64,000 nt of DNA from Candidatus Woesearchaeota archaeon (GTDB taxonomy: Archaea; Nanobdellota; Nanobdellia; Woesearchaeales; GW2011-AR9). The notes under the pieces are model-generated. The model saw only the letters and a list, made by a program, of their open reading frames with translations. It made no database searches and was not told where the DNA came from. A program made the translations under genes and the position numbers. Shown here one piece after another: positions 15,274-55,978 of this stretch (its first letter is position 1; each line of letters opens with the position of its first letter). The stretch covers positions 14,091 through 78,090 of the forward strand of contig JABIJM010000020.1 in assembly GCA_018655525.1 (NCBI GenBank), read 5' to 3'.

Positions 15274-15303
15274 ACTAGACAAGTACGCATAGAGCTTATA
15301 AAT
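15274..15303 (+). promoter_or_regulatory. Conserved motif plus TATA box upstream of LAGLIDADG gene 1
   Basis: ACTAGACAAGTACGCATAGAGCTTATAAAT; 27/30 identical to 55949-55978 (-). Confidence 0.8.
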
Positions 15304-15323
15304 AAAGAAAATCTGAGAGAATT

Positions 15324-16013
15324 ATGAACCTAGGTAAAATTAATAAAATTCCCTTAAATAATATCACTGCATATTTAGCTGGTGTAATTATTGGAGATGG
15401 AAATGTCTCCAATGCATCAAAATCTAAAAAAGATAAATCAAAAGATTATAGAATTACAATTGAAGTTACTGATCTTAATTTCTTAATCAATGTTGAAAAA
15501 TTAATTAAATCAATTATAAAAACAAAAAGTACAGTAACAAAAAGATCAAAAATTAAAGAAAAAAGGAAACAATTATATTATTTTCAATTTAGAAATAAAA
15601 GTTTTTATTACTTTCTTACAAAAGATTTGGAGATTCCAGCTGGAAAAAAGTCAAATATTGTTTTTGTTCCTAATAAAATATTAAAATCTAATGGATTATA
15701 TCCTTTTTTTCTTGCTGGGGTATTTGATACAGATGGAGGAATTAGAGGAAAGACTCCTGGATTTACTTCAGCAAGTAAAAAATTAATTGATGGATTAAGT
15801 TTTATTCTAAATGAACTTAAAATCACCCATTATTTAGATTCATGGGTTAATAAGAGATATAATCAAAGATATTATGGAATTAAGATATCGGTAAAAGATA
15901 CCGACAAGTTTTTAAATGGGTTACCATCATGTAACAAAGAGAAACTTGACAAAGTTCTTGTCCATGTGGACGTGCCGGAGCGGTCAAACGGGCTGGAAGG
16001 TCTTCCGATATAG
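15324..16013 (+). CDS. Free-standing double-motif LAGLIDADG endonuclease-like protein; 3' end overlaps tRNA-Leu
   Basis: AYLAGVIIGDG and FLAGVFDTDGG; no intein splicing motifs; stop TAG 16011-16013 lies in the tRNA intron. Confidence 0.88.
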   Translation: MNLGKINKIPLNNITAYLAGVIIGDGNVSNASKSKKDKSKDYRITIEVTDLNFLINVEKLIKSIIKTKSTVTKRSKIKEKRKQLYYFQFRNKSFYYFLTKDLEIPAGKKSNIVFVPNKILKSNGLYPFFLAGVFDTDGGIRGKTPGFTSASKKLIDGLSFILNELKITHYLDSWVNKRYNQRYYGIKISVKDTDKFLNGLPSCNKEKLDKVLVHVDVPERSNGLEGLPI

Positions 16014-16079
16014 GAAACCTGGCTGAGCTTAGGACCCAGTGGCTTAGTGCCTACGCAGGTTCAAACCCTGCCGTTCACA
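15966..16079 (+). tRNA. tRNA-Leu(UAG) with intron at 30/31 (15997-16026)
   Basis: GTGGACG/CGTTCAC acceptor, CTGGG/CCCAG anticodon stem after splicing, long variable arm, TTCAAAC loop, BHB at junction. Confidence 0.93.
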
Positions 16080-16086
16080 TCTTTTT

Positions 16087-17658
16087 TTATACACTCTTAA
16101 ACAATTTCACAACTCTTTCTTTTCCAATCTCTAAGATGAATGACGCCAATCGTGGTCCTTGATCTTTATTGATTAAGACATTATACGCTATCTTAAAGAA
16201 ATCTTTAATTGGGAATTCTGAGTTTTTACATAAGATATACATCTCTTCATGTAACTCTTTATCTGTCCATTCTTTTTCACCTAGTTTTTTAGCTAATTGA
16301 TGAAGAATTTCTTTTTCTTCTTTTCCAAGAGTCACTTGCGAGGTTTTTTGTATAGTAAATGTAAATTCATCTGGAGCATATTTTTTAACCCAATTGGTTG
16401 CACATTCTGCACGTTTTCTAATACGTTTTTTATCATGCTCATTCTTAAGCTCTTTTTCAAAATATCCAATGACTTTATCTATATCAAATTCATAAATTTG
16501 TAAAAGTGTTGTTAGATGTCTAAAACTTGGTTGGTAAGGAATAGTCTTTGGAATTTTTCCAATATAACTTAATTCATATGCAACCGACATTTTGATTGTA
16601 TCTTTTTCATTGACTTTATGTTCACCATAATACACACGCTCCACTTTATCAAATTCTTCATAGATTGCAATAACATCTACATCAAATGAGATTGCAAATT
16701 CTCTATTTGGACGAGTTCCTGCAAATAAGTATCGTGTTACTTCTGGTTCATAAATTTCAAGAACGTCTGTTAATGTTGTTACGTTTCCTGAAGAGGAAGA
16801 CATTTTTCCTCCACCACCTTTAATACGAATAAAATCGTACATAACATAGGTTGGTGCTTCAAAACCATAAACTTCTTTGCAAATTTGTTTTCCTGTATCA
16901 AAACTTCCACCCTTTGTAGAATGGTCTTTTCCACCTGGCTCAAAATCTACATTTTCATACATCCAACGCATTGGCCAATCTATTCGCCATTTTAATTTGA
17001 CATTTCCATCTTTGCGAATATCTACTGTTTCGGTTGTACCGTCAGTTAATTTGTAGGAAACACCCCATTTACCGTCCCAGGTTAATTCTGTAACATCGTC
17101 AGTTCCTAATTTTTTAGAGAATACTGCAATAGGCAACCAATCATCTGCTAAAGGGTTTTCTCTATATTGATCAATAATTTTTTTGATTTCTTTTGTATGT
17201 TCTAATGCTATTTTGATCTCTTTAGCATATGTACCTTTCCGATACATTTTATGTTGATAAATATATTCTGGATTAATTCCAACACGTTTTACAGATTCTT
17301 CTACTGCAACTTGGTTATGCTGTGCATAACTTTCATGTGAATCATAAGGGTCTGGTACATCTACAATTGCTTTTCGTAATTGTGCTTTAAGTTCTTCTTG
17401 TTTTGGCATGCCTTTTGGAACTTTTCTAAATACGTCATAATCATCCCAGGAATAAATAAATCGGACTTTTTTGCCTTTTTTTTCAAGAGCACGTTTCACT
17501 AAATCTACAGTTATAATTTCTCTAAAATTTCCAATGTGTACAACACCGGAAGGTGTTATTCCTGAAGCAACAGTATATGTTTCTTTATCTCCTTTTTGTC
17601 GGATGATGTTATCTGCTGCGACATCTGTCCAATGATATGATTTTTGTTCTTTTGCCAT
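16087..17658 (-). CDS. lysS: Class I lysyl-tRNA synthetase
   Basis: GITPSGVVHIGNFRE, KLKWRIDWPMRW, FEPGGKDH, KMSSS. Confidence 0.96.
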   Translation of the reverse strand: MAKEQKSYHWTDVAADNIIRQKGDKETYTVASGITPSGVVHIGNFREIITVDLVKRALEKKGKKVRFIYSWDDYDVFRKVPKGMPKQEELKAQLRKAIVDVPDPYDSHESYAQHNQVAVEESVKRVGINPEYIYQHKMYRKGTYAKEIKIALEHTKEIKKIIDQYRENPLADDWLPIAVFSKKLGTDDVTELTWDGKWGVSYKLTDGTTETVDIRKDGNVKLKWRIDWPMRWMYENVDFEPGGKDHSTKGGSFDTGKQICKEVYGFEAPTYVMYDFIRIKGGGGKMSSSSGNVTTLTDVLEIYEPEVTRYLFAGTRPNREFAISFDVDVIAIYEEFDKVERVYYGEHKVNEKDTIKMSVAYELSYIGKIPKTIPYQPSFRHLTTLLQIYEFDIDKVIGYFEKELKNEHDKKRIRKRAECATNWVKKYAPDEFTFTIQKTSQVTLGKEEKEILHQLAKKLGEKEWTDKELHEEMYILCKNSEFPIKDFFKIAYNVLINKDQGPRLASFILEIGKERVVKLFKSV

Positions 17659-17747
17659 TGAGAGAAGTGAATGGAGGGAATTATATAAACGTTATGGGAT
17701 TACTTTTATAAACCTCAATAATTTACTTATTCCTAAAAAGAGGTACG

Positions 17748-18629
17748 ATGATAATCACAAGCTGTGGAAATTCTGTAAAACTAGCAAAATCGCTCGCAAA
17801 AAAGCTTCGTGTGAAATATGTTCCTTTAGATATTGGCGCATTTCCTGATGGGGATATGTATATGCGATTTAAAGCAAAATCTTTTAAGAAAAAGAAAGTA
17901 GTCATCGTACAATCATTTCAACCAAATCCAGACATGAGTTTATTTGATGTTATTTGGGCTGCAGAAACTGCAAAAGATATTGGGGCAAGGAAAGTAATTC
18001 TGGTCGCACCATATCTTGCATTTATGCGTCAAGATAAACGGTTCAATTCTGGAGAAGCTGTTTCTTCTCGGATAATGGCGAAATTGTTAAACAAATCCAT
18101 TGATAAAATTATCACAATTGATCCACATTTACATAGATATAAATCATTAAAAGAGATCTTCACAATTTCAGCTAAAAAATTAACAGCAAATCCATTAATA
18201 GGTGAATTTGTGAAAAAGAAAATTAAAAATCCTGTGATTCTTGGTCCTGATTGGGAATCATATCAATGGGCAGATAAAATTGCAAGTCATGTTGGGTGTG
18301 ATTCTACGTGTTTAGCAAAAACACGATTTTCTTCTAGAAGAGTAACGTCAAAAATGACGAAAAATGTTGAAATCAAAGGAAAAAATGTTGTGATTATAGA
18401 TGACATTATTTCTACTGGACATACGATTATAGAAGCTGCAAAAAAAGCTAAAAAGAAAGGTGCAAAATCAATCACAGCTATTGGAGTTCATGGATTATTT
18501 GCAGAGAATGCAATTTCTAAAATGAAAAAATATGTTGATTGGATTTATACGACTAATACGATTGAACATAAAACAAGTAAGATTGATGTTTTGCCATTAG
18601 TGTTAAAAGAATTGAAAATATTAAAATAA
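17748..18629 (+). CDS. prs: Ribose-phosphate pyrophosphokinase
   Basis: FPDGD, PYLAFMRQDKRF, IIDDIISTGHT. Confidence 0.95.
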   Translation: MIITSCGNSVKLAKSLAKKLRVKYVPLDIGAFPDGDMYMRFKAKSFKKKKVVIVQSFQPNPDMSLFDVIWAAETAKDIGARKVILVAPYLAFMRQDKRFNSGEAVSSRIMAKLLNKSIDKIITIDPHLHRYKSLKEIFTISAKKLTANPLIGEFVKKKIKNPVILGPDWESYQWADKIASHVGCDSTCLAKTRFSSRRVTSKMTKNVEIKGKNVVIIDDIISTGHTIIEAAKKAKKKGAKSITAIGVHGLFAENAISKMKKYVDWIYTTNTIEHKTSKIDVLPLVLKELKILK

Positions 18630-18905
18630 TGCTTTCTTAAGATACTTCCCTACTGTTGCTCCTTGATTCAATGCAACCAAGGATAAATATCCAGCAACAA
18701 CTGCACCTCCAGCAAGTGTAGCTGCCATGCTACCATTTAAAATTTTATCAGATAAATCGGGATATTGGTGATAAAATTGTGTTTGTTCAATTGCACCATT
18801 TAAATACCATAAAGACAAAGAACCTAAAAAAGGAGTTAATTTAAATTGTATCAAAGAATCATAAAATTTATTTTTCTCTTGTTTTGTTAAGTTATCTAGT
18901 ATCAT
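18621..18905 (-). CDS. Small membrane protein, hypothetical
   Basis: Two hydrophobic segments; coupled to upstream ORF. Confidence 0.55.
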   Translation of the reverse strand: MILDNLTKQEKNKFYDSLIQFKLTPFLGSLSLWYLNGAIEQTQFYHQYPDLSDKILNGSMAATLAGGAVVAGYLSLVALNQGATVGKYLKKALF

Positions 18906-19510
18906 TAGAAACCTGGTCTTATAAATCCTTCATACATGCTTGTTTTCACACAAGACCTATACCTATTATCTGTTCTATTATCTTTGATTTTTTTGAAACC
19001 ACACATCCTTTTAGAAGATTTAATACATTCTTTTTCTAATTTTGATGTTGGTCCAAAATGCAATACACTTTCACTATTTTTACGCATATTTTGAACAGTA
19101 TTCACATAACTTCTACATGCATTTATTGTGAATTCGTCACTTTGATTTTTGTAATGATTTTTTACTCTTGGTCGTTTTTTAGATTTTATAAATAACGGAG
19201 GAATTACAGCTCTTCGCTTCTTTCCAATAGAAACATTTGCATCTCTACCTGTTGCATAACCATTGTCCATTTGGCCTAACCCATGAATTCTTCCATAACC
19301 ATTTCCTGATTGATAGCCTAAGCCATCACCAAATTTTGGTGTTGACGGATTCCAAACTGGTGCTTGTTTTGCAATATAAGTTACATTAGGTTCTTCATGA
19401 GTTACAGCTGGTTTCTCAATAGATGTTTGTTTAACTTGTACTGGTGCACAAGCAATAGACATAGCCACTGCAAGTGGTGCTAATTTATGTAGTATATTTG
19501 TTAGTATCAT
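18905..19510 (-). CDS. Putative lipoprotein
   Basis: SIAC lipobox-like signal. Confidence 0.55.
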   Translation of the reverse strand: MILTNILHKLAPLAVAMSIACAPVQVKQTSIEKPAVTHEEPNVTYIAKQAPVWNPSTPKFGDGLGYQSGNGYGRIHGLGQMDNGYATGRDANVSIGKKRRAVIPPLFIKSKKRPRVKNHYKNQSDEFTINACRSYVNTVQNMRKNSESVLHFGPTSKLEKECIKSSKRMCGFKKIKDNRTDNRYRSCVKTSMYEGFIRPGF

Positions 19511-19515
19511 ATTAA

Positions 19516-20064
19516 TTACATCTCAACATTATGTTTATTACCATCTCTATCTACAGCGACAGCTACTCTGATCCTGGTTTCTGGAACTTGAATGTGATAT
19601 TCAAATCCATTTTTTTGAACACTTATTGTTTGAAGAGCTCTTCCTGTTGATGAATTCCAAGGATAATCTGATTGAACTTTTTGAACTGCTGCATCCAAAA
19701 CACGGTAACATTGTTCAATATCAACACGTTCCATTCCGCCTGAAAGTGTCATGAAATCTCTAGTTTCTTTTGAAGAATCTGTATATTCCCCTCGCATTCC
19801 TTGTTCAAACCTATTGTGTTGACGTTTAGCTGTTTGATAAATATTTCTAAATGCTCTACGTCGTGTTAATTTTTCATGTTCAAATTCACTCATATCCTCT
19901 GTAATATCTAAAGCATCTCCTAACATTGGAAAAGAATGGAGTAAAGTTTCTGACACAACATATTTATCACTTCCTGGAACAGGAGTTTTTCTTCCTTCCA
20001 TAATATCATTATGCGTAGCCATAAAAATATCTCTTGCTTGAACTAATTTATCATTTATTGTCAT
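19516..20064 (-). CDS. Hypothetical protein
   Basis: 182-aa ORF with GAGGT SD and TATA upstream. Confidence 0.6.
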   Translation of the reverse strand: MTINDKLVQARDIFMATHNDIMEGRKTPVPGSDKYVVSETLLHSFPMLGDALDITEDMSEFEHEKLTRRRAFRNIYQTAKRQHNRFEQGMRGEYTDSSKETRDFMTLSGGMERVDIEQCYRVLDAAVQKVQSDYPWNSSTGRALQTISVQKNGFEYHIQVPETRIRVAVAVDRDGNKHNVEM

Positions 20065-20139
20065 TTTGTGTGTTTACCTCTATTTAAGTATAAAATAGGA
20101 GGAATACTTTATAAACCTTTCGTCCCTTTTAAGTAGAGA

Positions 20140-20733
20140 TTAAGCAACTCTTTTTTTCTCTATCTTTTTCACGGTTGCAATAAGGGAAGAGATCCATGTT
20201 TCTACTGTTTCAATGGTAGCATCTAAAGTAGAGATATGTTCAATAAGAGAAAGCATAAATTCTTCAAGTTGTTTAACTGAACGTCCTCTTGAAATATGTT
20301 GGTCTAAAAGCATAATCCCTGTCCTCACATTATTAAATGCATGAAATAAAAGATTCATGTGCTCTTTCAAACCTTTTCTTAATTTATCTTGGACTTCTAC
20401 ATAATTCTGTTGATATTCAAGTGGAACACCTACTTTTTCAAATTCCTTATTTAAATCATTAATATAACGATCAAGTCTAAACGAAGTTTTTGATGCAAAA
20501 CGTAATTTTTCTGAAGATTCATTAATATCATTTTTTGTTTGTTTTAAAAGTAACAATTCTTGAGTCCTTAAAACTCCACTTTTATCTTTACGTTGTAAGG
20601 ATTGTTGTAAATTATTTTGAACAAGCATCAATTTTTCTAAATGTTTTTTTGCATGTCCTATATTATCTTTTAATTCATCAACATATTTAAATTCTACAGC
20701 AAGCCATTGAATTACTTCATCTACACTACTCAT
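20140..20733 (-). CDS. Hypothetical helical/coiled-coil protein
   Basis: 197-aa ORF overlapping the pduO-like stop; heptad pattern. Confidence 0.6.
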   Translation of the reverse strand: MSSVDEVIQWLAVEFKYVDELKDNIGHAKKHLEKLMLVQNNLQQSLQRKDKSGVLRTQELLLLKQTKNDINESSEKLRFASKTSFRLDRYINDLNKEFEKVGVPLEYQQNYVEVQDKLRKGLKEHMNLLFHAFNNVRTGIMLLDQHISRGRSVKQLEEFMLSLIEHISTLDATIETVETWISSLIATVKKIEKKRVA

Positions 20734-21310
20734 GCGTGTTCACCCCATTAAAATATTTGTAAATTGGTTGTTGTTCTTTAACTTCCAATTCATTGTTTGC
20801 ACGTCTTGCAAGAACAAATAGTAAATCACTTAATCGGTTCACATAGCAAAGCACAGAAGGATTTACAAGATGATCATTACTTGCTTTTACTAAGACACGT
20901 TCTGTTCTTCGTGTAATAGAACAGCATAAATGTAAAAAAGAACTTGCAATAGTACCTCCAGGTAAAATGAAAGAAGTTTGAGGTGCAAGAACTTCCGCAA
21001 TGTGATCAATGTGTTCTTCTAAATCTTTAATATGTTGTTGTTGGATTTTTGGAAGGTTATAATCGGGCATATGGGAACTTGCCATATCAGAACCAACAGT
21101 AAAAAGATCGTTTTGAATTTTAGAGAGTAGTTCACGTAACTTTTCATTCTCAATAAAACATAATGTTACACCAATCACAGAATTCAATTCGTCTATAGAA
21201 CCAAGTACTTCTATACGAAAATCATCTTTAGAGACTCTTGTTCCTCCATAAAAAGAGGTTTTTCCTTGATCACCTGTTTTTGTATATATTTTCATCTTAA
21301 TATCCTTCAC
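20726..21310 (-). CDS. pduO: PduO-type cob(I)alamin adenosyltransferase (likely start 21295)
   Basis: KIYTKTGDQGKT, GSIDELNS, FILPGG, RRTER, NRLSDLLF. Confidence 0.93.
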   Translation of the reverse strand: MKDIKMKIYTKTGDQGKTSFYGGTRVSKDDFRIEVLGSIDELNSVIGVTLCFIENEKLRELLSKIQNDLFTVGSDMASSHMPDYNLPKIQQQHIKDLEEHIDHIAEVLAPQTSFILPGGTIASSFLHLCCSITRRTERVLVKASNDHLVNPSVLCYVNRLSDLLFVLARRANNELEVKEQQPIYKYFNGVNTHE

Positions 21311-23363
21311 CTATGTTAATAACTTGATCTTCATAACTTCCATCCCTATAAATGGTGATACCTTTACATTTAGATTTCCATGCAAGAAGGTATGCTTCTT
21401 CAACATCTTTAATGGATGTTGTTCTTGGGAAGTTGATTGTTTTTGAGATGGAATTATCTACATTTTTTTGTAAGGTTGATTGCATTTTAATGTGCCATTC
21501 AGGTGCAATGTCCTGTGCTGTCACAAAAATGTCCCTTACATCTTTTGGAATTTCTTTAAATCCTTGAATACTTCCTGCTTTTGCAATTTTTCTGATTAAT
21601 TCTGGTGTATAAAATCCTCGTTCTCTTGAAACACGTTCAAAGGTTTTATCTAAATAAATTATTTCTGAATCTCCCAACACCGTTTTTTGATAAGAGATTG
21701 CAAATAGTGGTTCACAACCAGGAGAAGCATCAGCCATGATACTAATTGTTCCTGTTGGTGCCAAGGAATTACAAGTAATATTTCGCATTTTTCGTCCTGC
21801 TTTTTGATGATCAGACCCATGCCATGCGGAACATACACCACGTTGTTCAGCAAGTTTAGAGGACATTTCGTAGGTTGTAGTTTTAATAAAACTCATCAAT
21901 TTTTCTGCAAATTCTAAACCTTTATCTGAATCATATTTTAAACCTAATTTTATTAAACAATCTGCAAACCCCATCATTCCCAAACCAAATTTTCTAGAAC
22001 GTTTTGTTCGTTCTTCAATAATTTTAAGAGGATAACTATTCATATCTATGACATTATCCAAAAAGTGAACTGCAGTTTTGATTGTTTCATAAAGATCATC
22101 CCACAATATATCCTTTTTTTCTTGATCTACAAATTTGTTTAAGTTTAATGATCCAAGTACAACACCTTCATATGGAAGAAGTGGCGCTTCACCACATTGA
22201 TTTGTTGTTTCAATTTCTCCAAGATGTGCTGCTGGATGTTTTCTATTAATTTCGTCAATAAAAATTAATCCTGGATCACCTGTTTTCCATGCATTCTGTG
22301 TGATCATAGAAAAAACATCTCGTGCTCGGAGTTTACCATGATTTTTTCCGGTTTTAGGATCTGCAATCATATAGTCCCTATCAGCTTCAACTGATTTCAT
22401 AAATCTATCAGTTACTCCTACAGAAATGTTGAAGTTTTTAAGAGATCGTTTATCACGTTTTGATTCTATGAAACGAATGATATCTGGATGATCAACACGA
22501 AGGACTGCCATGTTTGCACCTGGCCGGATTCCTCCCTGTATGATTGCACCGAATGCTTTATCAAAAACCTTCATAAATGCAATGGGACCAGCTGCAACAC
22601 CTTGTCTTCTACCAACAGAATCCATTCTTGAACGTAAACGTGAGAATGAAAAGCCAGTTCCTGCACCACGTTGATGAATCAAAGCCGCATCTTTAAGGGT
22701 TCCAAAAATTCCCTCCATCGTATCATTAATTGGAAGAACAAAACAAGAAGAAAGTTGTTGTGTTTTTGTCCCTGCATTTTTTAAAGTGGGAGAATTAGGC
22801 ATGAATTTTAATTCAGACATTACTTCAAAAAACCTTTTTTGGTAATCTTTAATTTCTGTTTCTGTTGCATTATAATGTTTATCAGCTTGTGCAACATTTT
22901 TCGCAACACGTTGTAACATCTGCTGCGGCGTTTCAATTAAACTACCAAATTCATCTTTTTGAAGATATCTTCTCTCTAAAATTCTTAATGCTTGATGTGA
23001 AAAATTTAAACTTTCTTGAGATTCTTCTGTTCCAAGAATTAATGCTGACGTTTTTCTTTGCTCATCTTTTTTATGTCTGTGAAGAATATATGCTTTTGCG
23101 ATTTTAACATGCCCACGCTCTATAAGAACTTCTTCTACCAAATCTTGAACTACTTCAGCAGAAGGGACACCTTCTTTATGGCGTGCTTTGAGGTAGGTAA
23201 GGACATCATTTGCTAATGCCAAAGATAAAGAACGATCTGCTTGATTTACGGTAAGAGAAGCCTTAAATATTGCATCTGCAATCTTGACAAGATCAAATTT
23301 AACAACTTTTCCACTACGTTTTTTTATATCTTTAAGTTCTGTAATTTTCTGTGAGTCTTGCAT
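21297..23363 (-). CDS. nrdJ: Class II (AdoCbl) ribonucleotide reductase with N-terminal ATP-cone
   Basis: IKKRSG ATP-cone, PNSPTL, SSCFV, TNQCGE, APTGTIS, ISKTINFP, YRDGS. Confidence 0.9.
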   Translation of the reverse strand: MQDSQKITELKDIKKRSGKVVKFDLVKIADAIFKASLTVNQADRSLSLALANDVLTYLKARHKEGVPSAEVVQDLVEEVLIERGHVKIAKAYILHRHKKDEQRKTSALILGTEESQESLNFSHQALRILERRYLQKDEFGSLIETPQQMLQRVAKNVAQADKHYNATETEIKDYQKRFFEVMSELKFMPNSPTLKNAGTKTQQLSSCFVLPINDTMEGIFGTLKDAALIHQRGAGTGFSFSRLRSRMDSVGRRQGVAAGPIAFMKVFDKAFGAIIQGGIRPGANMAVLRVDHPDIIRFIESKRDKRSLKNFNISVGVTDRFMKSVEADRDYMIADPKTGKNHGKLRARDVFSMITQNAWKTGDPGLIFIDEINRKHPAAHLGEIETTNQCGEAPLLPYEGVVLGSLNLNKFVDQEKKDILWDDLYETIKTAVHFLDNVIDMNSYPLKIIEERTKRSRKFGLGMMGFADCLIKLGLKYDSDKGLEFAEKLMSFIKTTTYEMSSKLAEQRGVCSAWHGSDHQKAGRKMRNITCNSLAPTGTISIMADASPGCEPLFAISYQKTVLGDSEIIYLDKTFERVSRERGFYTPELIRKIAKAGSIQGFKEIPKDVRDIFVTAQDIAPEWHIKMQSTLQKNVDNSISKTINFPRTTSIKDVEEAYLLAWKSKCKGITIYRDGSYEDQVINIGEGY

Positions 23364-23411
23364 TGAAAGATTAAGAAGAAAGGATGTTTAAATATTTATT
23401 GGAATGAGAAA

Positions 23412-43757: not shown

Positions 43758-43765
43758 ACAATCAC

Positions 43766-46416: not shown

Positions 46417-46423
46417 AGAATAA

Positions 46424-47587: not shown

Positions 47588-47642
47588 GTATTTATGCTCA
47601 AACAAGTCCCCTTTAAAAAGATTTCTGAAGATACACCTATTT

Positions 47643-47701
47643 TTCCTTTCGTAAACTGCAGTCACTAGCGTTCGGGAGTTTACTCAGTTCCTTTCGTAAA
47701 C
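47643..47701. repeat. 14-bp direct repeat flanking a 31-bp insert
   Basis: TTCCTTTCGTAAAC at 47643-47656 and 47688-47701. Confidence 0.7.
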
Positions 47702-47731
47702 CTTATAAACATACTTAGCCCCCACTTAAAT

Positions 47732-48085: not shown

Positions 48086-49176
48086 AGGCTGCGTTAATAT
48101 CTTTAGGAAGTAAAAGTTCTATGATGGCAGCGGATGCGATGAAGAAGTATTTTGATGAAGTTGATATGATTCAACTTCGTGATATTGAAGTGAGTTTAGG
48201 AAAAGAAAGTGATATTCTTTATCAAGGTGAACCAATGAAACAATATGATTGTGTGTTCTTGAAAGGGTCATTCAGATATGCACATATTTTACGTTCTATT
48301 GCATCAATGTTAGAAGGGAAGGTTGCATACATGCCAATTCCAGCTGATGCGTTTAGTACGGTTCATAATAAATTATTAACACATCTCATTATGCAACAAC
48401 ATAATATTCCGATGCCGAGAACGTATGTTTCTTCTACGGTAGAAGCTGCAAAGGAATTGTTGAATCGTGTGAGTTATCCAATTGTGATGAAATTTCCGGA
48501 AGGAACACAAGGGAAAGGAGTAATGTTTGCAGATTCTGTAAGTTCTGCTGTTTCGTTATTGGATGCATTAGTAGCATTAAATCAACCTGTAATTATTCAG
48601 GAATATGTTGAAACAGGTGGAACAGATATCCGTGCAATTGTTGTTGGTGATAAAGTTGTAGCATCTTACAAAAGAAGATCACAGAAAGAAGATAAGCGAT
48701 CAAACATCCATGCAGGTGGTTCAGGTGAACCAGTTCAATTAAGTTGGCAGGCTGCAAAAGTTGCAGTACAAACAGCAAAGGCATTAGGTGTGGACATGTG
48801 TGGTGTGGATATTTTGGAGAGTCCTTTAGGTCCTGTTGTGATAGAAGCTAATTTATCTCCTGGTTTACAAGGTATAAGTCAAATTTCTACAATAGACATT
48901 CCAGACGCTATGGCACGATTCATGTATGATCAAACGAAAAAAATAGTTGATAAGTCAAGGAATGTTGGTGCGGCTGCAGTATTACGTGATATTTCTTTAG
49001 ATCAACCTAAGAAAAAAGAAGGTAACGGTCATGCTATTATTTCTCCTTTGAAATTACGTGGAGATAGAATCATCTTACCTGAGTTTGTAAATAAAATGGC
49101 GAAATTTTCTGAATCTAAAGAATATTCAATTAAAGCTTCTAAAGGCAGTGTTATCATTGAAGAATTTGATATGTGA
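48082..49176 (+). CDS. RimK/LysX family ATP-grasp ligase with C-terminal AbrB-like extension
   Basis: NKLLT, PIVMK..GTQGKGV, QEYV, DIRAIV, RSNIHAGG, GVDIL, EANLSPG. Confidence 0.9.
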   Translation: MKAALISLGSKSSMMAADAMKKYFDEVDMIQLRDIEVSLGKESDILYQGEPMKQYDCVFLKGSFRYAHILRSIASMLEGKVAYMPIPADAFSTVHNKLLTHLIMQQHNIPMPRTYVSSTVEAAKELLNRVSYPIVMKFPEGTQGKGVMFADSVSSAVSLLDALVALNQPVIIQEYVETGGTDIRAIVVGDKVVASYKRRSQKEDKRSNIHAGGSGEPVQLSWQAAKVAVQTAKALGVDMCGVDILESPLGPVVIEANLSPGLQGISQISTIDIPDAMARFMYDQTKKIVDKSRNVGAAAVLRDISLDQPKKKEGNGHAIISPLKLRGDRIILPEFVNKMAKFSESKEYSIKASKGSVIIEEFDM

Positions 49177-49178
49177 AA

Positions 49179-49475
49179 TTATTTCTTAGATTCTTTTTTA
49201 GCTGGTTTCTTAACTGCTTTTCTTTTAACAGATTCTACAATTACTTCTTCAATTTGTTCAGGATCTTTCCGTGGTTTGAATCCTAGAAGATAAATAATTG
49301 GAAGAAGTCCTGCTGTGTTTAATAAGAACATAACTACAAACCATCCTTTCTGATTGTGCTTACCAGCATGCCATAATGCAATGCCTTTCCAGATCATAGT
49401 CCATGCAATTAATGCAATTAATGTTAATGTAACATATCCCGGAGATTGATATATTTGATTTAAGTACCATACCAT
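49179..49475 (-). CDS. Small membrane protein (DUF5652-like)
   Basis: WTMIWKGIALWHA...WF...LNTAGLLPIIYL. Confidence 0.75.
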   Translation of the reverse strand: MVWYLNQIYQSPGYVTLTLIALIAWTMIWKGIALWHAGKHNQKGWFVVMFLLNTAGLLPIIYLLGFKPRKDPEQIEEVIVESVKRKAVKKPAKKESKK

Positions 49476-49573
49476 GTTGTATTTTTTAGGTTGAAGTGTA
49501 TATAAAGATTGTTGTGTTTAAGTAAACTTTTATAAACAAAAACATCCTCCTATTGTCTATAAAGAGGTACTAG

Positions 49574-51733
49574 ATGAAGTTCTTAGATTGGTTCACAGGA
49601 AAGAAGAAGGTTGAAGGGAATGTTTCTGTACAGAAAGTACATCCCGAAAGTAAGATCCCTCCTCATGCAAAAGTTATGAATAATCAAGTTAAACCTGTTT
49701 CTCAACCAAATCCTAAAACCGTGAATCAAAAGATTACAGCTCCTCTTGCAAAAATCACCGAATTTACTGGCGCAACTGGAAAGAAGAAGATTGGGTATTG
49801 GGTGATTGTGTTTATTCTTATCAACTCAATTTTAGGTTCGTCATTATTTTATCTTCCATCTCAAGGTGTGCTTAGTTCAGGTGCTGCGTCAATTATTGCA
49901 TGGATTGTTTTATTCATCATGGCATCATGGATCATGTTGTACATCGGTGAATTGATTACTACGTATCCTAGTTCTGGAGGAACGTATGAATATTGTAAAC
50001 GTGCATATGGAAGATTTGGATCGTTTTCTGCTGGTTGGTTAATTTGGCTAGCAGGAAATTTTGGAATGGCATTAAACATTGTAGCTGCAGCCGAATATTT
50101 TATTCCTGGTCCGCCTCAAGGAGGGGTTTTAATTTTACGTATTGTATTTGCATTAGTCTGGATCATTGCATTAAATTTCATGGCATTCCGTGGAATAGAT
50201 GCAGGTACAACGATGTTGCTTGTGTTTGGAGTGATTGCTACCTTCGTATTATTATTAATGACATTCCCTTCATTCATTGATTTTGGTGCAATTTTACAAG
50301 GCACATTTAAGTCACCATTTAATCCTGCATATATGCAGCCATTCTTTCAAGGTGTTGGAGGAGTTGGATTTTTTGCGGGATTAGGTTTATCATTATTTTT
50401 AATCAGTGAAGCATTCTTAGGTTTTGAAACTGTAACTTATCTTGCAAATGAAGTTAAAGATCCTAAGAAGTTACATAAACCACTTATTGCTGCAATTATT
50501 ATTTGTGGTGTTTTAATGAGTCTATATGTTTTTTCATCCTTGGGAATTGTGCGTTATTCTGATTATGTTCAAGATGCACGTCCGTTTGCTCTACAGGCAT
50601 TACAAACAATGGGACAGAAGGGACAAGACCTTGTTGTCTTTGGCATGTATCTTGTAATCATTGGAGCTGCTGCTGCATGGCCAATTACTGGAGGACGATT
50701 AATCCAAGCGATGGCAAAAGATAAATTGTTCATCACACATTTTGCGGTATTACATCCAAAACATAAATCTCCACATAGAGCAGTATATTTTCAAACTCTA
50801 GCCGTATCAATCTTTACATTTGTGTTATTTAGAGGATACTATGTCGCATGGAAGGATCCTTATCGAACAGTGTATTTGATTTATGTGTTGCTTAGTTTAT
50901 TGGTTATTGGAATGGTTTTGTTAACTGTACCAATATTACGAAGAAAAGATCCTTTAGCTGAACGTCCATTTAAAGCACCATTTGGTACAATTGGTCCAAT
51001 TATATTATCTTTAATATTTGCAGTTCTTATTGGAAATTGGATTATGATTGAACACGCCGTTGCAACGACCATTATGTCTTTAACTGCATCTTTTATGTTT
51101 GTTGGCATCCCATTTTATTTCATGGTAGAAATGTTCTTTAATCCTAATGCAATCAGAGAAATGAATGATAAATTATCATTTTTTTCAGGAATGTTTGAAA
51201 AAGTATTTTATCCGTTTTCTATTAGAAGAAAGTTGTTGAAAGAGATGGGTGATATGCGTGGGAAAGTAATTCTAGAACATGGTTGTTCTGTTGGGTTGTT
51301 AACAGAAAGGTTAGCGAAGAAAGTTGGCCCAAAAGGAAAGGTTATCGCAACAGATTTTTCTTTACATAAAGTCAAGAAAGCAGATAAACGTACAAAAAAT
51401 ATTGCACATGTTACAGTCCACCATCATCCTAATTTGAAGGATTTTACGTTGGAATTGAAAGAACAAGTAGATGGTATTATTTCTGTAGGAATGCTTTCTT
51501 ATATGCAAGAACCAGCAAAAATGTTGAAAAGTATGGCTCAACATGTGAAGAAAGGTGGAGAAGTAGTATTTTTAGATTTTGATAAATTCTTTTATATAAT
51601 TCCAAACGTAAAATGGGTGCAATCTGATGCTCAATTGATTGGGATCTTTAAGCAAGCTGGATTTGATGTGAAGGTTGAGAGAAAGAATGGACTTCTTTGG
51701 AAGTACATTAATGTATTTGGTGTTAAGGTTTGA
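49574..51733 (+). CDS. APC-family amino acid permease fused to a class I SAM-methyltransferase-like domain
   Basis: GSSLF, EL...YPSSGGTYEY, FLGFE, ERPFKAP; C-terminal VILEHGCSVG, VIATDFS, KKGGEVVFLD. Confidence 0.85.
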   Translation: MKFLDWFTGKKKVEGNVSVQKVHPESKIPPHAKVMNNQVKPVSQPNPKTVNQKITAPLAKITEFTGATGKKKIGYWVIVFILINSILGSSLFYLPSQGVLSSGAASIIAWIVLFIMASWIMLYIGELITTYPSSGGTYEYCKRAYGRFGSFSAGWLIWLAGNFGMALNIVAAAEYFIPGPPQGGVLILRIVFALVWIIALNFMAFRGIDAGTTMLLVFGVIATFVLLLMTFPSFIDFGAILQGTFKSPFNPAYMQPFFQGVGGVGFFAGLGLSLFLISEAFLGFETVTYLANEVKDPKKLHKPLIAAIIICGVLMSLYVFSSLGIVRYSDYVQDARPFALQALQTMGQKGQDLVVFGMYLVIIGAAAAWPITGGRLIQAMAKDKLFITHFAVLHPKHKSPHRAVYFQTLAVSIFTFVLFRGYYVAWKDPYRTVYLIYVLLSLLVIGMVLLTVPILRRKDPLAERPFKAPFGTIGPIILSLIFAVLIGNWIMIEHAVATTIMSLTASFMFVGIPFYFMVEMFFNPNAIREMNDKLSFFSGMFEKVFYPFSIRRKLLKEMGDMRGKVILEHGCSVGLLTERLAKKVGPKGKVIATDFSLHKVKKADKRTKNIAHVTVHHHPNLKDFTLELKEQVDGIISVGMLSYMQEPAKMLKSMAQHVKKGGEVVFLDFDKFFYIIPNVKWVQSDAQLIGIFKQAGFDVKVERKNGLLWKYINVFGVKV

Positions 51734-51739
51734 TAATAT

Positions 51740-52534
51740 TCAATTAAATATCTCTTTGATTAATTTTCCATCCCAGTAATCTTTCTTTTCAAGATTTAAG
51801 ATATGGGTAATTGTTGGAGTGATATCCACAATACTACTAAATTTAATAGTTTTATTTTGATTTACATTTGGACCAACAATAACAAAAAATGTTTCTTTTT
51901 CTTCAGGAGTATTTCCACCGTGATTCCTTTTAATACCCCCGTGATCTGATGTAATTATTAAAGTTGTATTTTCCATCAACTTTTTTTGATGTAAAAGATC
52001 AACCAATTTCTTTACTTTAGAATCTGTTCTTCTTGCCATCCAGTTGTACAGCTTAGACCCATATCCAAAAATATGACCAAAAACATCTACAAGATCAAAA
52101 TGAAGAAATAGAAAATCAGGTTGTTTTTTATTTATTTGTGAGATTGCATTTCTAAGAGATCCTTGATCACTAAGAGACCATTTTGTATGGTAAGAACTTT
52201 TCAGAACAATATTTTTTTCTATAGATCTTTTTACAGATCCAGAATAAAAAATGGAAAAGTCTTTTTTGGTGTTATATAAGAAATCTAATATTGTAGGAAA
52301 GGGTAAAGATTTATCCCTCCGTGATTTCCAATTTTCATCAACAATTCCATGTTTTTTAGAATCTACCCCTGATAATAAAGAGGTCCAATTTGGAGCACTA
52401 GTAGTAATAGCAACATTTTCCATTTTTGTAGTATAAGTTCCTTTCTTAAAAAGACTAGAAATAAAAGGAGCATTCTGAGAATTAATATATCTCCCCCCTA
52501 AACCATCAATCCCTACAACAATAACTTTTACCAA
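51740..52534 (-). CDS. Alkaline phosphatase superfamily (NPP-like) protein
   Basis: GIDG, TSAPNWTSLLSG...HGI, DVFGH, TSDHGG, H. Confidence 0.88.
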   Translation of the reverse strand: MVKVIVVGIDGLGGRYINSQNAPFISSLFKKGTYTTKMENVAITTSAPNWTSLLSGVDSKKHGIVDENWKSRRDKSLPFPTILDFLYNTKKDFSIFYSGSVKRSIEKNIVLKSSYHTKWSLSDQGSLRNAISQINKKQPDFLFLHFDLVDVFGHIFGYGSKLYNWMARRTDSKVKKLVDLLHQKKLMENTTLIITSDHGGIKRNHGGNTPEEKETFFVIVGPNVNQNKTIKFSSIVDITPTITHILNLEKKDYWDGKLIKEIFN

Positions 52535-52559
52535 TTTAAATTTATTAAGAAGAAGTCAT

Positions 52560-53432
52560 TTAATTAACTTTCTTATTTCGTTTCACTGCTTTTCCACATT
52601 GTTTACAGAACTTGGCATCTGTATCGTGTTCTATTAAACCGCATTTTTTACATGTTGACTTCGTTTTACCAGAAGTAGAGATTACAATCTTCAAGAGTTT
52701 TCCTAATTGCCATGGGATTAATGCGATTCCTGAAAGGATCATGATAACGGTTGTAATACGACCCCAGGCTGATACAGGCGTTATGTCTCCATAACCAACT
52801 GTTGACATGGTCACAATCGCAAAATACATTGCTTTCCAGATGGATCCAAATTCTCCTGGATTAATTTTATTTTCAATTGCCCATAGGAATCCAGAAGAGA
52901 CAAAGACAATTGTAAATATCGTTAATACAATTCTAATAATTACCAGTTGTGTATCACTTAGCTGTCCAAACATCGTGTTCTTAGATTTAAAGATTCTCTG
53001 AAACCGAAGAATCCGTAAGATTCTAAAGAGTCGTAAGATTCTGAAAATTCTAAGGAAACTTAGGTTAATGAAGTTTACTGCTACTGGCAAGATTGCAAGA
53101 AGATCTATAATACTATAAATATTGAAGAAATGTTTCGTTTTCCTTTCTGCAACCCACATTCTTGCGGCATATTCTAAGATGAAGATACCAACTAAAAATA
53201 ATTCTGCAGTATGGAGGAAAGTTTGTGTTGCATCTGAGATGTTATGAGTTTCTATAACAAATAAAACGATTGCAAGGAAGTTTAGGAAGAATAAAGTTCC
53301 TTCAATCCTTCGTCCATGTTTTGATCCATAATTATCTAAATGTAAGTGAAGGTATTTCTGTACTTTTTGATGTATCTTTATATCTATTTTATCTTCATCT
53401 GTTAATTTACGAGAAGATTTACGTTTAGCCAT
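52560..53432 (-). CDS. Voltage-gated K+ channel (6TM) with C-terminal Zn ribbon
   Basis: S4 FLRIFRILRLFRILR, filter TVGYGD, CKKCG...CKQCG. Confidence 0.93.
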   Translation of the reverse strand: MAKRKSSRKLTDEDKIDIKIHQKVQKYLHLHLDNYGSKHGRRIEGTLFFLNFLAIVLFVIETHNISDATQTFLHTAELFLVGIFILEYAARMWVAERKTKHFFNIYSIIDLLAILPVAVNFINLSFLRIFRILRLFRILRILRFQRIFKSKNTMFGQLSDTQLVIIRIVLTIFTIVFVSSGFLWAIENKINPGEFGSIWKAMYFAIVTMSTVGYGDITPVSAWGRITTVIMILSGIALIPWQLGKLLKIVISTSGKTKSTCKKCGLIEHDTDAKFCKQCGKAVKRNKKVN

Positions 53433-54050
53433 TTACTTCCTCTTTCTAAGATTAGGTTTTGTACCTTTTCTTCTATGCGTTTTCCATTTACGTTTTGCTA
53501 AATGGTGTTTGGAATCAAACTGTGAAAATAAACGTGATTTTGTTACAACCCTAATTGACCTTGCACCTAATCTTAAAAATTTTGTAAATTTTCCTGTACG
53601 AGATGCAACTTGAATACCTTTTCGTGCTTCCAAACTTTCATGAAGAATCGCTTGACCTATAGCTAATCTTGAACCAGCAGCCACAACCTTAAAGAATTTT
53701 GTTAAAAGAGTAAATGCTAATGCAAGTGGAAAAATTGCAATGATATCCAACCAATAACTTTTGAAGAAAAATGACACAGATTTTGCTTTAATTGCAAGGA
53801 ATGTTAAATCCACAACAAAGACTGCAATGACAAAGTAATCTAAAGCTAAAATATATGTGTGATAGTGATGTGCAAAATCACTAAAATAAGGAACCAACTC
53901 CACTACAATTACAAATAATAAAACAACAATCGCGGGAGTGATTAATTTTGCATTATAATGTTCAACTTTTTCCCAGAAGCCATGTAATTCATGAACAGAA
54001 GGATGTAATTTCTTTTTAGAAGGTTTTTTTACAGCTTTCTTTTTAGCCAT
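53433..54050 (-). CDS. Voltage-sensor-like membrane protein without pore domain
   Basis: S2 DYFVIAVFVVDL, S3 YWLDIIAIFP, basic KFLRLGARSIRV; no GYG filter. Confidence 0.6.
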   Translation of the reverse strand: MAKKKAVKKPSKKKLHPSVHELHGFWEKVEHYNAKLITPAIVVLLFVIVVELVPYFSDFAHHYHTYILALDYFVIAVFVVDLTFLAIKAKSVSFFFKSYWLDIIAIFPLALAFTLLTKFFKVVAAGSRLAIGQAILHESLEARKGIQVASRTGKFTKFLRLGARSIRVVTKSRLFSQFDSKHHLAKRKWKTHRRKGTKPNLRKRK

Positions 54051-54051
54051 G

Positions 54052-54927
54052 TTACTTTCTCCGTTTTTGCTTTTTAGCTAAATTATCAATATTCTTTAAA
54101 TCTTCAACAATATCAGACGCAATAAACGAATATCCTTTCTTTTTCTTAAGAAGCATATCTCCAACTAAACCATTGAGGTATGCTGCAGCAACTGCACTTT
54201 TGAATAAGTCTTGGGACTTTGCAAGAAATCCTACTGCAAGTCCTGCAAGGACGTCACCTGTCCCTCCTTTCGTCATACCTTGATTACCAGTTCTGTTATA
54301 TGAAATTTTGTTTCGTGAAATAATAATGTCTGTTGGACCTTTTAAAAGGAGAACATTGTTATTTTGAAGAAAGTATCGTAAGTTACCTTGAAGAATTTCT
54401 GCTTTTTCTTTTACATGTGCTTCTCGTAATTTAGGGATTAAGAAATCTTTCCCACTATTTGCAAGCATCATTTCTAATTCTGTTTCATGTGGCGTTATAA
54501 TGGAATTTTGAAAATCTTTGAATCCCATTGATTTCAATGCATCAGCATCAATTACTTTTGGCCATGGACATTTTTTGATGAAGTATTGTGCAAATTTATC
54601 TCCTTTTCTGGTCATACCATTTCCAAGAAGTACTGCATCAAAGTGTTCCACAAGCCGCACCATTTCTTTTGCTTGTTTAACGGTATAAAGATTTCCTTTG
54701 ATTTTCTTTGTGATTAAATCTGGAGCATACCTATTTACGGTCCATGCCACTTTATCTTGTGCTGCAATTGTAACAATGTCACATCCGGATCTTAAAGCTC
54801 CAAGACCTGCTAATGTTAACGCACCTACAAAATCTTCAGAACCGCCAATGATTAATGCTCTTCCATTTTCTCCTTTACGTGAGTTCTTCTTACGGTCCAT
54901 TAATTTTTTAACGTAGTTGAGGTTCAT
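54052..54927 (-). CDS. nnrD: NAD(P)HX dehydratase
   Basis: KGENGRALIIGGS, IDADAL, ITPHETE, LKG, GGTGDVLAG. Confidence 0.92.
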   Translation of the reverse strand: MNLNYVKKLMDRKKNSRKGENGRALIIGGSEDFVGALTLAGLGALRSGCDIVTIAAQDKVAWTVNRYAPDLITKKIKGNLYTVKQAKEMVRLVEHFDAVLLGNGMTRKGDKFAQYFIKKCPWPKVIDADALKSMGFKDFQNSIITPHETELEMMLANSGKDFLIPKLREAHVKEKAEILQGNLRYFLQNNNVLLLKGPTDIIISRNKISYNRTGNQGMTKGGTGDVLAGLAVGFLAKSQDLFKSAVAAAYLNGLVGDMLLKKKKGYSFIASDIVEDLKNIDNLAKKQKRRK

Positions 54928-55086
54928 TTATAAAAGAAAATGTCTATTTTGAGGTTTATATAGTTTTATTGTAATCCTAAAGTAAGAAAAGTGATTTTTG
55001 TATGCGTTTATTTAAATGAAAAAACAAAAAAGGTGTATTTAAGTTTACAAAAATCTTTTAAAGGGATGTTGTTATTAGAGCTTTGT

Positions 55087-55225
55087 GGGCCTGTAGCTCA
55101 GTCTGGTCTAGAGCGCTGATTCCTAAAGGAAGCGTAAGTCTTATATGAATGCTCTTGATTCAGATTACAACATCAAGAGTATCTAAGCCAGCCAGAGGTC
55201 GAGGGTTCAAATCCCGCCAGGCCCA
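55087..55225 (+). tRNA. tRNA-Ile(UAU) with introns at 29/30 (55119-55137) and 37/38 (55146-55189)
   Basis: Spliced: GGGCCTG TA GCTC AGTCTGGTCTA GAGC G CTGGT CT TAT AA GCCAG AGGTC GAGGG TTCAAAT CCCGC CAGGCCC A; BHB helices GCGC/GCGT and CTTA/TAAG. Confidence 0.88.
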
Positions 55226-55928
55226 CTTTTTTTTTGAATTTTTTTTTGTTATTATATCCAATTATCTCAAGCCATTTGGTTACTCGCTTAAATCCGTGAA
55301 TTGATATTGTATGAGAGATGTAAGTTTTACTACTTCGTTTATCATATCTTTTTATATCAAGAAGAATAGAATTTTGAATATTTAACTTTATAAAAAGTTT
55401 TTGAAGATCAATAATTAAATTCTTACTTGAAAAATCTCCTTGTAAACTTGGATAAGGGCCGTTACTTCGTTTACGAATTATTAAGCTAAAATCCGTATCA
55501 ATTAGACCTCTTAGAAAACCAGCGATTATTTCTTTGTTATTTGATACCATAATAATGTTTGGAACACAAATATCTTTCTTTGTACCTATTGGAAGTCCAA
55601 TTACTTTAGTATAAAAATTTGCAAGAGCAAAAGAGTAAATCCTAAGTCTTAATTCGTTACCTTTTTGCCTCAATGTTCCTTTTTGAATATTGTATAATTC
55701 TCTCTTAAGGTTCATGATATGCGTCATATGACTTTTTTCATCAATATGTCCAGAATAGATAAATTCAAAAGTTTTACAACTTCCAGCCAGATAAAGAGAT
55801 CCATCACCTAAATGAATTCCAATATCTTCGGATAACTTAGGTGTTAGAACTTCTGGAATTACAATTCCTTTTTCTATATCTCTTCTACTATAAACTACAT
55901 TTGATAAATTTAATTTTTCCATTTTCAC
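55173..55928 (-). CDS. Free-standing double-motif LAGLIDADG endonuclease-like protein; 3' end antisense to tRNA-Ile
   Basis: EDIGIHLGDG and FLRGLIDTDF; tail VGLAGFEPSTSG is the tRNA antisense; stop lies in the 37/38 intron. Confidence 0.88.
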   Translation of the reverse strand: MKMEKLNLSNVVYSRRDIEKGIVIPEVLTPKLSEDIGIHLGDGSLYLAGSCKTFEFIYSGHIDEKSHMTHIMNLKRELYNIQKGTLRQKGNELRLRIYSFALANFYTKVIGLPIGTKKDICVPNIIMVSNNKEIIAGFLRGLIDTDFSLIIRKRSNGPYPSLQGDFSSKNLIIDLQKLFIKLNIQNSILLDIKRYDKRSSKTYISHTISIHGFKRVTKWLEIIGYNNKKKFKKKVGLAGFEPSTSGWLRYS

Positions 55929-55948
55929 TAAACTAAATGGAAAAATTG

Positions 55949-55978
55949 ATTTATAAATTCTATCCGTACTTGTCTAGT
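55949..55978 (-). promoter_or_regulatory. Conserved motif plus TATA box upstream of LAGLIDADG gene 2
   Basis: ACTAGACAAGTACGGATAGAATTTATAAAT on - strand; extra CACTAGACAA copies nearby. Confidence 0.8.

Follow-up and report, generated by a model that had tools for sequence, protein, structure and literature searches.

Two free-standing LAGLIDADG endonuclease genes, about 40 kb apart in a 64,000-nucleotide (nt) stretch of a Candidatus Woesearchaeota archaeon genome (the window, meaning that whole stretch at its full length), are preceded by almost the same sequence. We suggest that this sequence belongs to a promoter element of ~40 nt, here called the box, which, judged from where its copies lie and which genes they precede, probably serves as the common cis-element of a regulon that unites DNA-repair and selfish-DNA genes and is conserved across a Woesearchaeota-type DPANN family. 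The 30-nt motif (30-mer) described in an earlier, sequence-only reading of the window points to an undescribed common switch, and not to a private tag of two LAGLIDADG genes. Each window copy is simply the promoter of one LAGLIDADG gene, and twelve such genes carry the box in the window's own genome (G000; 963,529 bases or 0.96 Mb, 93.6% complete).

The promoter box and its copies in one genome

Both 30-mers are confirmed, at 15274-15303 (+) and 55978-55949 (-), and are identical at 27 of 30 positions, differing at three. With up to three mismatches allowed, the 30-mer occurs in the window at these two sites only and matches in 0/100 dinucleotide-preserving shuffles; a 13-mer core is exact at both sites. 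The 30-mer is itself composite, consisting of 14 nt of a box-specific element, a stretch resembling the transcription factor B recognition element (BRE) and a TATA box. The features at the two sites are as follows, with scores of the box-specific parts taken from the position weight matrix described below.

15265..15286, + strand: box-specific part of copy 1 (GCACACCCCA + CTAGACAAGTAC), about -60 to -39 from the ATG; matrix score 55.8
15287..15303, + strand: BRE-like stretch (15287-15295) and TATA box (15296-15303) of copy 1; TATA heptamer 28 nt before the ATG
15324..16013, + strand: LAGLIDADG endonuclease gene 1, free-standing, 229 amino acids (aa); LAGLIDADG_3 match of 55.1 bits, both acidic residues present
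55966..55988, - strand: box-specific part of copy 2 (CCACTAGACAA + CTAGACAAGTAC); matrix score 52.7
55949..55965, - strand: BRE-like stretch (55958-55965) and TATA box (55949-55957) of copy 2
55173..55928, - strand: LAGLIDADG endonuclease gene 2, free-standing, 251 aa from a GTG, with the first ATG at 55922; LAGLIDADG_3 match of 21.9 bits, just below the 22.5-bit cut-off

The two proteins had been described as sharing little beyond their LAGLIDADG helices. Their identity is indeed only 28%, but the homology is full-length (204 aa, E 9e-7). The spacing had been called identical, and 20 nt do separate the end of the motif (15303) from the ATG of gene 1 (15324); at the second site the distance is likewise 20 nt if gene 2 starts at GTG 55928, the start in the list of open reading frames (ORFs), but 26 nt if it starts at the first ATG, 55922. 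Archaeal TATA boxes centre ~26-27 nt before the transcription start. Among 767 crude ORFs of the genome, TATA-like heptamers occur 28-31 nt before the ATG in 291 instances, with a peak of 115 at 29 nt, and because of this pile-up most genes look leaderless. In the window, both TATA heptamers begin 28 nt ahead of the start codon (15324 and 55928), within the genome-wide range. The equal spacing of the two sites is therefore the ordinary TATA-to-start distance, which leaderless genes show throughout the genome.

What is peculiar to these promoters lies farther upstream. In promoters that lack the box, conservation begins only at -8 of the TATA box, where the generic BRE of the genome reads C-A-A-A-A at -8 to -4, and the sequence farther upstream is plain AT-rich; the 25 nt at about -62 to -39 are thus specific to the box, since generic promoters have no conservation there. 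The complete box reads cCCAC..CCCA-CTnGACAAGTnC-GGnTAGA-TATA, and the 30-mer is its 3′, promoter-proximal part. Relative to the start codon, the specific element occupies about -62 to -39, the BRE-like GGnTAGA -38 to -30 and the TATA box -29 to -22. The specific element falls into two halves that resemble tandem direct repeats, CAC..CCCA or CACTGGAC and then CTnGACAAGTnC, and these read as lying about one helical turn apart. In many sites the core is repeated in the upstream half, as at the 94-aa gene introduced below (CACTGGAC.CACTGGnCAA) and at the second window site (CCACTAGACAA-CTAGACAAG), whose upstream half is a tandem-repeat variant.

The 13-mer core occurs 32 times in the genome with up to two mismatches, versus 15 times for a reversed control, and a third exact copy lies on contig C11. 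Nine of the ten core matches with at most one mismatch have ~45 nt in common, and a looser core search gave 17 sites. A 54-nt position weight matrix was built from these 17 hand-picked sites and scanned on both strands, yielding 21 box copies with scores of 28.7-62.9 bits, of which 17 fit by construction, having trained the matrix, and four are new; no site scored between 18 and 28.7 bits. The window holds only two of the matrix matches, so that the earlier observation of the motif before no other gene stands for the window but not for the genome.

Of the 21 copies, 12 precede LAGLIDADG genes, one of which encodes a protein with extra winged-helix matches. The box is ~85-90% alike between loci whose proteins share ~29% identity. 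Two further free-standing LAGLIDADG ORFs of the genome (on contigs C5 and C23) have degenerate boxes. The other nine copies precede genes for Hef, NreA, RadC, Lhr and a Bro-N protein, two ORF6N genes and two small-protein loci. A motif specific to LAGLIDADG genes, as had been supposed, is thus not what the genome scan found; nine of its 21 copies stand before unrelated genes, an outcome that the sequence-only reading had itself named as counting against its proposal, and in relatives it also stands before UvrA, UvrB, PolB, integrase and methylase genes. The Hef protein has helicase, ERCC4 and HhH domains, and NreA has Nre_N and Nre_C (NCBIfam NreA E 4e-73, below the equivalog cut-off).

In three cases a leader separates the box from the gene, and an Rfam search of the leaders behind three boxes found no family. 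The Lhr-type helicase gene (G000:C23:189991-194259, -; 1424 aa, containing a LAGLIDADG intein) has its box 213 nt before the ATG, and its GC-rich leader matched no Rfam family. The gene for a 94-aa protein (G000:C30:12405-12686, -; 2197-2478 of locus L027) has a leader of ~75 nt after the box, and an overlapping pair of small ORFs (614-852, +, of locus L019, G000:C18:10579-13679) one of ~100 nt. The small-ORF pair is driven by the best-conserved box of the family; the ORFs encode 41 aa (MVDLTTRTI...SGGW; orfA) and ~35 aa, both conserved in eight other genomes, and a second TATA-like sequence, ATATATAAA, lies directly 5′ of their box at all orthologous sites.

The box in related genomes and the regulon it may define

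The pattern CTnGACAAGTnC-N9-WTWTAWA, searched with up to one mismatch and with the reversed pattern as control, gave 112 matches in 27 of 41 related genomes versus 12 control matches; in an even sample of the family the box was found in 31 of 40 other genomes, with seven control matches. The exact pattern occurs in at least 119 stretches among 185,579 species genomes. Most of the 80 listed are titled Woesearchaeota, Nanoarchaeota, 'archaeon' or 'uncultured Methanosarcinales', and the ~18 bacterial ones among those 80 are at about chance level by estimate. Over 135 sites from this genome, its relatives and public Woesearchaeota-type metagenome-assembled genomes, the consensus is cccac..ccCACTgGACAAGT.CggatA.a.ttTATAAA, in which positions within the search pattern are constrained by how the sites were selected; the distance from element to TATA box is invariant, partly by construction of the pattern.

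From 94 pattern matches outside this genome, 60 sites in 11 genomes were fetched and sorted (34 were left out), in part by BLASTP against Pfam-annotated references. The repeated classes are LAGLIDADG genes (10), small-ORF operons (8), Bro-N genes (7), Xer-like integrases (7), Hef (4), the 94-aa gene (3), RadC (2) and C5-methylases (2). UvrA, UvrB, PolB, Lhr, a PD-(D/E)XK nuclease, KilA-N, ORF6N, Mrr, DUF4186 and a small helix-turn-helix (HTH) protein occur once each; five sites could not be classified, one is followed by no ORF, and one is a false match. Site L084 (G011:C3:1204-2831) was rejected as a box, as it sits within 23S rRNA next to a group I intron. A LAGLIDADG_1 ORF lies there beside the group I intron match (36.7 bits, below the Rfam gathering score) in the 23S rRNA gene.

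Orthologous genes carry the box in the same place across genera. It lies upstream of 16 of 28 Hef orthologues by regular expression and of one more by eye (30 loci, two partial matches left out), at a distance of 49-51 nt, or 59-60 nt in tandem forms. The 94-aa gene has it in 23 of 30 genomes, some missed by the strict pattern, and NreA has it directly upstream in 7 of 29, with one more by eye (30 loci, one truncated at a contig end left out). In the control, eIF2-gamma, the box was found in 0 of 28 (30 loci, two left out), with two loose core matches that lack the features of the box. NreA of G000 has its own box. NreA adjoins a box-driven gene for an Xer-like integrase in G014 and G020, which belong to two other genera (L088, G014:C3; L114, G020:C3), with overlapping stop and start codons in G014 and a 16-nt gap in G020, an arrangement which suggests that the two genes form an operon in both.

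The core also varies in concert within lineages: CTGGTCAAGTCC is found in 5/5 matches of G045 and 3/3 of G012, CTGGTCAAGT in 6/7 of G056 and GTrGACAAGT in 5/7 of G049. Such variants are what co-evolution with one trans-acting factor predicts. Together with the fixed place upstream of the TATA box and the conservation before orthologues across genera, they support one of the explanations offered in the sequence-only reading, an operator for a shared regulator.

The stable members of the proposed regulon are DNA-repair and DNA-transaction genes, namely Hef, NreA, RadC, Lhr, UvrA, UvrB, PolB and the near-universal 94-aa protein. They are joined by selfish or mobile members: free-standing LAGLIDADG endonucleases, Xer-like integrases, Bro-N, ORF6N and KilA-N proteins, and methylases. 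We envisage that a single sequence-specific DNA-binding protein would read the two half-sites just upstream of the BRE, where archaeal activators usually bind, and would control recruitment of TBP and TFB. The transcripts would be leaderless, with the ORF beginning ~20 nt after the TATA box. The signal would most likely be DNA damage or a related DNA-stress state, because the genes with the box include UvrA, UvrB, Hef, NreA, RadC, Lhr and PolB. The endonuclease and integrase genes would then be expressed when recombinational repair is active, much as mobile elements fire under the bacterial SOS response.

Several points weigh against this interpretation. We infer co-regulation and the DNA-damage signal from gene content alone, and the candidates searched (TFB, Orc1/Cdc6, WYL and Bro-N) include no identified binder. 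More than half of the genome's copies precede LAGLIDADG genes, so part of the similarity is due to the common origin of these promoters. The matrix that defines the 21 copies was trained on hand-picked sites, which account for 17 of them by construction, and NreA is directly box-driven in only about a quarter of genomes. Activation cannot be told from repression, because the TATA box of these promoters is near-consensus, which would also suit a repressor.

The best surviving alternative, which we nevertheless consider unlikely, is that the box is a strong constitutive promoter module with no dedicated regulator, spread by duplication or gene conversion and retained for the high expression that it drives. 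The near-consensus TATA box and purine-rich BRE-like stretch would suit such a module, no regulator was found in the searches run, and many copies lie at paralogous selfish genes able to carry a promoter along. However, beyond the BRE no conserved sequence is seen in generic promoters that are presumably strong; the genes form a functionally coherent set, not one of highly expressed housekeeping genes, and eIF2-gamma has the box in 0 of 28 genomes; and lineage-wide concerted changes of the core are hard to explain without a co-evolving binder.

It is very unlikely that the box is the conserved end of a mobile cassette (motif, TATA box, LAGLIDADG gene, tRNA) kept for the mobility machinery. This had been another of the proposals for the 30-mer, and some of the comparison with two congeneric genomes (G001 and G002; 76% and 80% complete) agrees with it: the box of the first site lies ~20 nt inside the left edge of a segment missing from the congeners, the box and endonuclease gene at tRNA-Cys fill a gap only 15 nt long in G001, and the box is present at all eight tRNA-linked LAGLIDADG genes. 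A matrix scan of both strands, however, found one copy per locus and no second, matching end at any of them; the nine copies before non-LAGLIDADG genes include conserved single-copy host genes, Hef and the 94-aa gene having the box in the same place in many genera; and its distance from the TATA box and the start codon does not vary, as is typical of a promoter. The notion of an element end is thereby largely refuted.

About as little credit can be given to the view that the LAGLIDADG proteins themselves bind the box, as a recognition site or as an autoregulatory operator. LAGLIDADG-derived regulators exist, WhiA being an example; the specific part of the box, ~22 nt, asymmetric and highly conserved, has the size of a LAGLIDADG target, some of the box-driven LAGLIDADG proteins have extra HTH domains, and a WhiA-type Pfam model gives weak matches. 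One shared 22-bp specificity would not be expected of twelve paralogues with a median identity of ~29%, though, and Hef and the 94-aa gene, too, are box-driven in many genomes, while retention of the catalytic acidic residues in 12/12 proteins fits nucleases better than domesticated binders.

Least probable of all is that the box acts as an extended BRE for an alternative TFB/TBP, or for a regulator of the Orc1/Cdc6 type such as Orc1-2, which controls the DNA-damage response of Sulfolobales (PMC6061795): the conserved stretch does reach into the BRE position, but this 93.6%-complete genome has one TFB gene and one Cdc6_C match, with no second, non-initiator Orc1/Cdc6 paralogue found, and the repeats beside cdc6 are unlike the box, no box word occurring within 4 kb of that gene. 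These repeats, three copies of the 11-mer ATTTCCTATGG and its complement at G000:C12:80913, 81916 and 82689, flank the single orc1/cdc6 gene and are candidate origin-recognition boxes.

If the box is read by a dedicated regulator, the other families searched offer no obvious one. No WYL domain was found in the genome, and no Bro-N protein was found in 8 of 41 genomes, among them G004, G007, G011, G017 and G020, which do carry the box. Of 40 family genomes, 37 have one copy of the 94-aa protein (KKFRAG...SATVW...LPKA), whose gene usually has a perfect tandem box. Its AlphaFold2 model (predicted local distance difference test score, pLDDT, 70.6) has four strands and a C-terminal helix; the protein may resemble PC4-like single-strand-DNA binders. 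A Foldseek search of its model against PDB gave no match at E<=0.001, Pfam and NCBIfam gave none, and its Atlas clusters are labelled only 'hypothetical'; the uncharacterised family is large, with 3111 representative clusters at E<=0.001. The 41-aa orfA is modelled as one long helix. For neither protein did the structure and sequence searches run give an informative fold or family, and sequence searches of PDB gave nothing below E 1.

LAGLIDADG genes at tRNA loci

A second pattern concerns the LAGLIDADG genes and their neighbours. All 12 box-driven LAGLIDADG proteins keep D or E in both motifs. LAGLIDADG_3 scores above its cut-off in ten, the protein of the second window site and one on contig C9 (20.2 bits) falling just under it. 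The genome has 28 known tRNA loci, 22 found by Infernal and six more by ARAGORN with introns allowed, and nearly all of its tRNA genes are intron-bearing, many at non-canonical positions. Isotypes given here are our reading of the anticodon arms; the ARAGORN labels with introns allowed (-i) differ, as ARAGORN misplaces introns.

Eight of the 12 LAGLIDADG ORFs end in or adjoin an intron-bearing tRNA gene. In seven the 3′ end overlaps the tRNA gene (two on the same strand, five convergent), and the stop codon of the eighth falls within the tRNA-Pro TATA box. Of the cassette proposed in the sequence-only reading, then, the tie between LAGLIDADG gene and intronic tRNA holds for these eight, but the box is a separate matter. 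The tRNA features of the window are the following.

15966..16079, + strand: tRNA read as Leu, anticodon TAG; a 30-nt intron (15997-16026) lies at a non-canonical position; the exons are defined by the intronless orthologues of G001 and G002
15243..16089, strand not applicable: segment differing from both congeners, which have an intronless, inverted tRNA-Leu and neither box nor LAGLIDADG gene; boundaries approximate, drawn by eye
55087..55225, + strand: tRNA convergent with gene 2, anticodon read as TAT; RF00005 match of 43.5 bits with a 74-nt insertion

ARAGORN with default settings reported no tRNA in the window, and Rfam missed the tRNA-Leu of the first site. The intron of this tRNA-Leu lies in the 5′ strand of the anticodon stem; the last 16 codons of gene 1 read through the 5′ exon, and its stop codon (16011-16013) falls within the intron. 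The tRNA of the second site, found by Rfam only, has two interruptions in the anticodon arm, and the 3′ end of gene 2 runs antisense through its 3′ exon and stops in one of its introns. At tRNA-Cys the LAGLIDADG ORF stops in a D-loop intron. Five loci could be compared with the congeners:

tRNA-Leu (first site): G000, endonuclease gene and intron; G001, neither, tRNA inverted between the same flanks; G002, as G001
Second-site tRNA: G000, gene and two introns; G001, gene and two introns; G002, no gene and no stem intron
tRNA-Cys: G000, gene and D-loop intron; G001, neither, tRNA 15 nt after the preceding tRNA; G002, cut by the contig start
tRNA-Pro: G000, gene and intron near position 9/10; G001, no gene, other introns; G002, no gene, other introns
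tRNA-Phe: G000, gene and two introns; G001, neither; G002, the same two introns, no gene

The gene beside tRNA-Leu, -Cys, -Pro and -Phe in G000 was thus not found in G001 or G002. The flanks of tRNA-Leu, genes for LysRS and a Cys-rich protein, are the same in all three genomes (L185, G001:C31; L184, G002:C45), and in G002 a 43-nt duplicate of the tRNA 3′ end lies ~40 nt downstream of tRNA-Leu. At the second site the region upstream of the tRNA is homologous in G002 and leads into a different tRNA body. The eIF2-gamma flank of this locus offers no clean empty site, because G002 shares only eIF2-gamma there; downstream of eIF2-gamma, none of 29 other genomes was found to have a box, a LAGLIDADG gene or a tRNA. 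One pairing is kept across genera: an endonuclease gene on contig C21 overlaps the 3′ end of a tRNA-Tyr-like gene, and so does its orthologue (61% identical) in G014.

Contigs of three other seawater runs carry the first site in identical form, from box to LAGLIDADG gene (X5 record 4, X6 record 11) and from LAGLIDADG gene through the tRNA to LysRS (X6 record 12, X8 record 19). No joint corresponding to an empty site at window positions 13000-19000 was found among the contigs listed from four seawater runs. Two joints in X5 (15997>16034 and 15997>16036; sides of 29/23 letters, 85% threshold) are probably due to other organisms with intronless tRNA-Leu genes and were not used. Among the sequencing runs listed as containing this DNA, none is of RNA.

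Gene-bearing alleles carry extra non-canonical introns, and the association of LAGLIDADG gene, tRNA and intron is real, separate from the box and the more novel lead. The pattern fits gain and loss of homing endonucleases, with introns that possibly protect the carrying allele, although only five loci are involved and the inversion of tRNA-Leu is not accounted for. A combined scenario, which we put forward tentatively and consider possible but doubtful, is that the box marks an SOS-like DNA-damage regulon into which the tRNA-side LAGLIDADG genes have been plugged, their activity driving the gain of non-canonical tRNA introns. An intron would break the target of the endonuclease and so would protect the allele that carries the gene.

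Away from the tRNA loci, an 897-aa ORF (G000:C8:68429-71056, -) has its P-loop split just after GKRGSGKC by an intein-like insert, which is the top LAGLIDADG_3 match of the genome (65.7 bits) and has no box upstream.

Comparison with known systems

Almost nothing is known of gene regulation in DPANN archaea. With ~20 copies per genome and a family-wide distribution, the box could serve as bait for its regulator and as a predictor of regulon members in uncultured genomes, and it offers a handle for asking if selfish endonucleases time their expression to the repair state of the host. The route by which archaeal tRNA introns arrive is still described as open in a 2026 preprint (10.64898/2026.10.13.758758); intron gain driven by LAGLIDADG endonucleases would, if true, be one concrete route. 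Our literature search, with supplementary tables outside its scope, turned up no description of a box of this kind or of LAGLIDADG genes next to tRNA introns in archaea, and no report of an SOS-like cis-element in archaea outside Sulfolobales.

A close parallel in organization is the bacterial SOS regulon with its LexA box, under which mobile elements also place their genes. The element described here resembles it in standing before uvrA, uvrB, polymerase, helicase, Bro-N-type and selfish genes and in its conservation across relatives. It differs in that it belongs to an archaeal BRE/TATA promoter, has non-palindromic tandem halves and lies upstream of the BRE, not over the core promoter.

Among archaea, Sulfolobales have an Orc1-2-dependent DNA-damage response with one global regulator and a promoter motif (PMC6061795, PMC12490963). 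By analogy, the box may likewise define an archaeal DNA-damage regulon through a promoter motif; here, however, there is a single Orc1/Cdc6, the box does not resemble the repeats at its gene, and both the phylum and the gene set are others. In bacteria, the WYL-domain activators PafBC and DriD act through promoter motifs in LexA-independent DNA-damage regulons (PMC6789036, PMC12340889), and a related system couples the damage response to defence genes (PMC12392091). Their motifs also lie just upstream of the core promoter, but the promoters are of the sigma-70 type, and no WYL domain was found in this genome.

For the tRNA loci, the relevant precedents are of a different kind. In 'collaborative homing', a free-standing endonuclease lies next to an intron in which it does not reside. 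The cyanophage enzyme F-CphI is a free-standing homing endonuclease (PMC6083498), and the likeness is that an endonuclease gene stands beside an interrupted gene, gene-bearing alleles having an extra intron that gene-free alleles of congeners lack. The introns here are short archaeal tRNA introns at non-canonical positions and not group I introns, the enzymes are of the LAGLIDADG type, and the tRNA-Phe of G002 keeps both introns without an endonuclease gene. Finally, tRNA intron gain has been linked to a mobile element in Caldiarchaeum (PMC3293823). There too, heterogeneity at one tRNA locus joins intron gain to an adjacent inserted gene; the Caldiarchaeum element encodes a recombinase and leaves a tRNA fragment, whereas the loci described here have a LAGLIDADG gene with the promoter of the proposed regulon.

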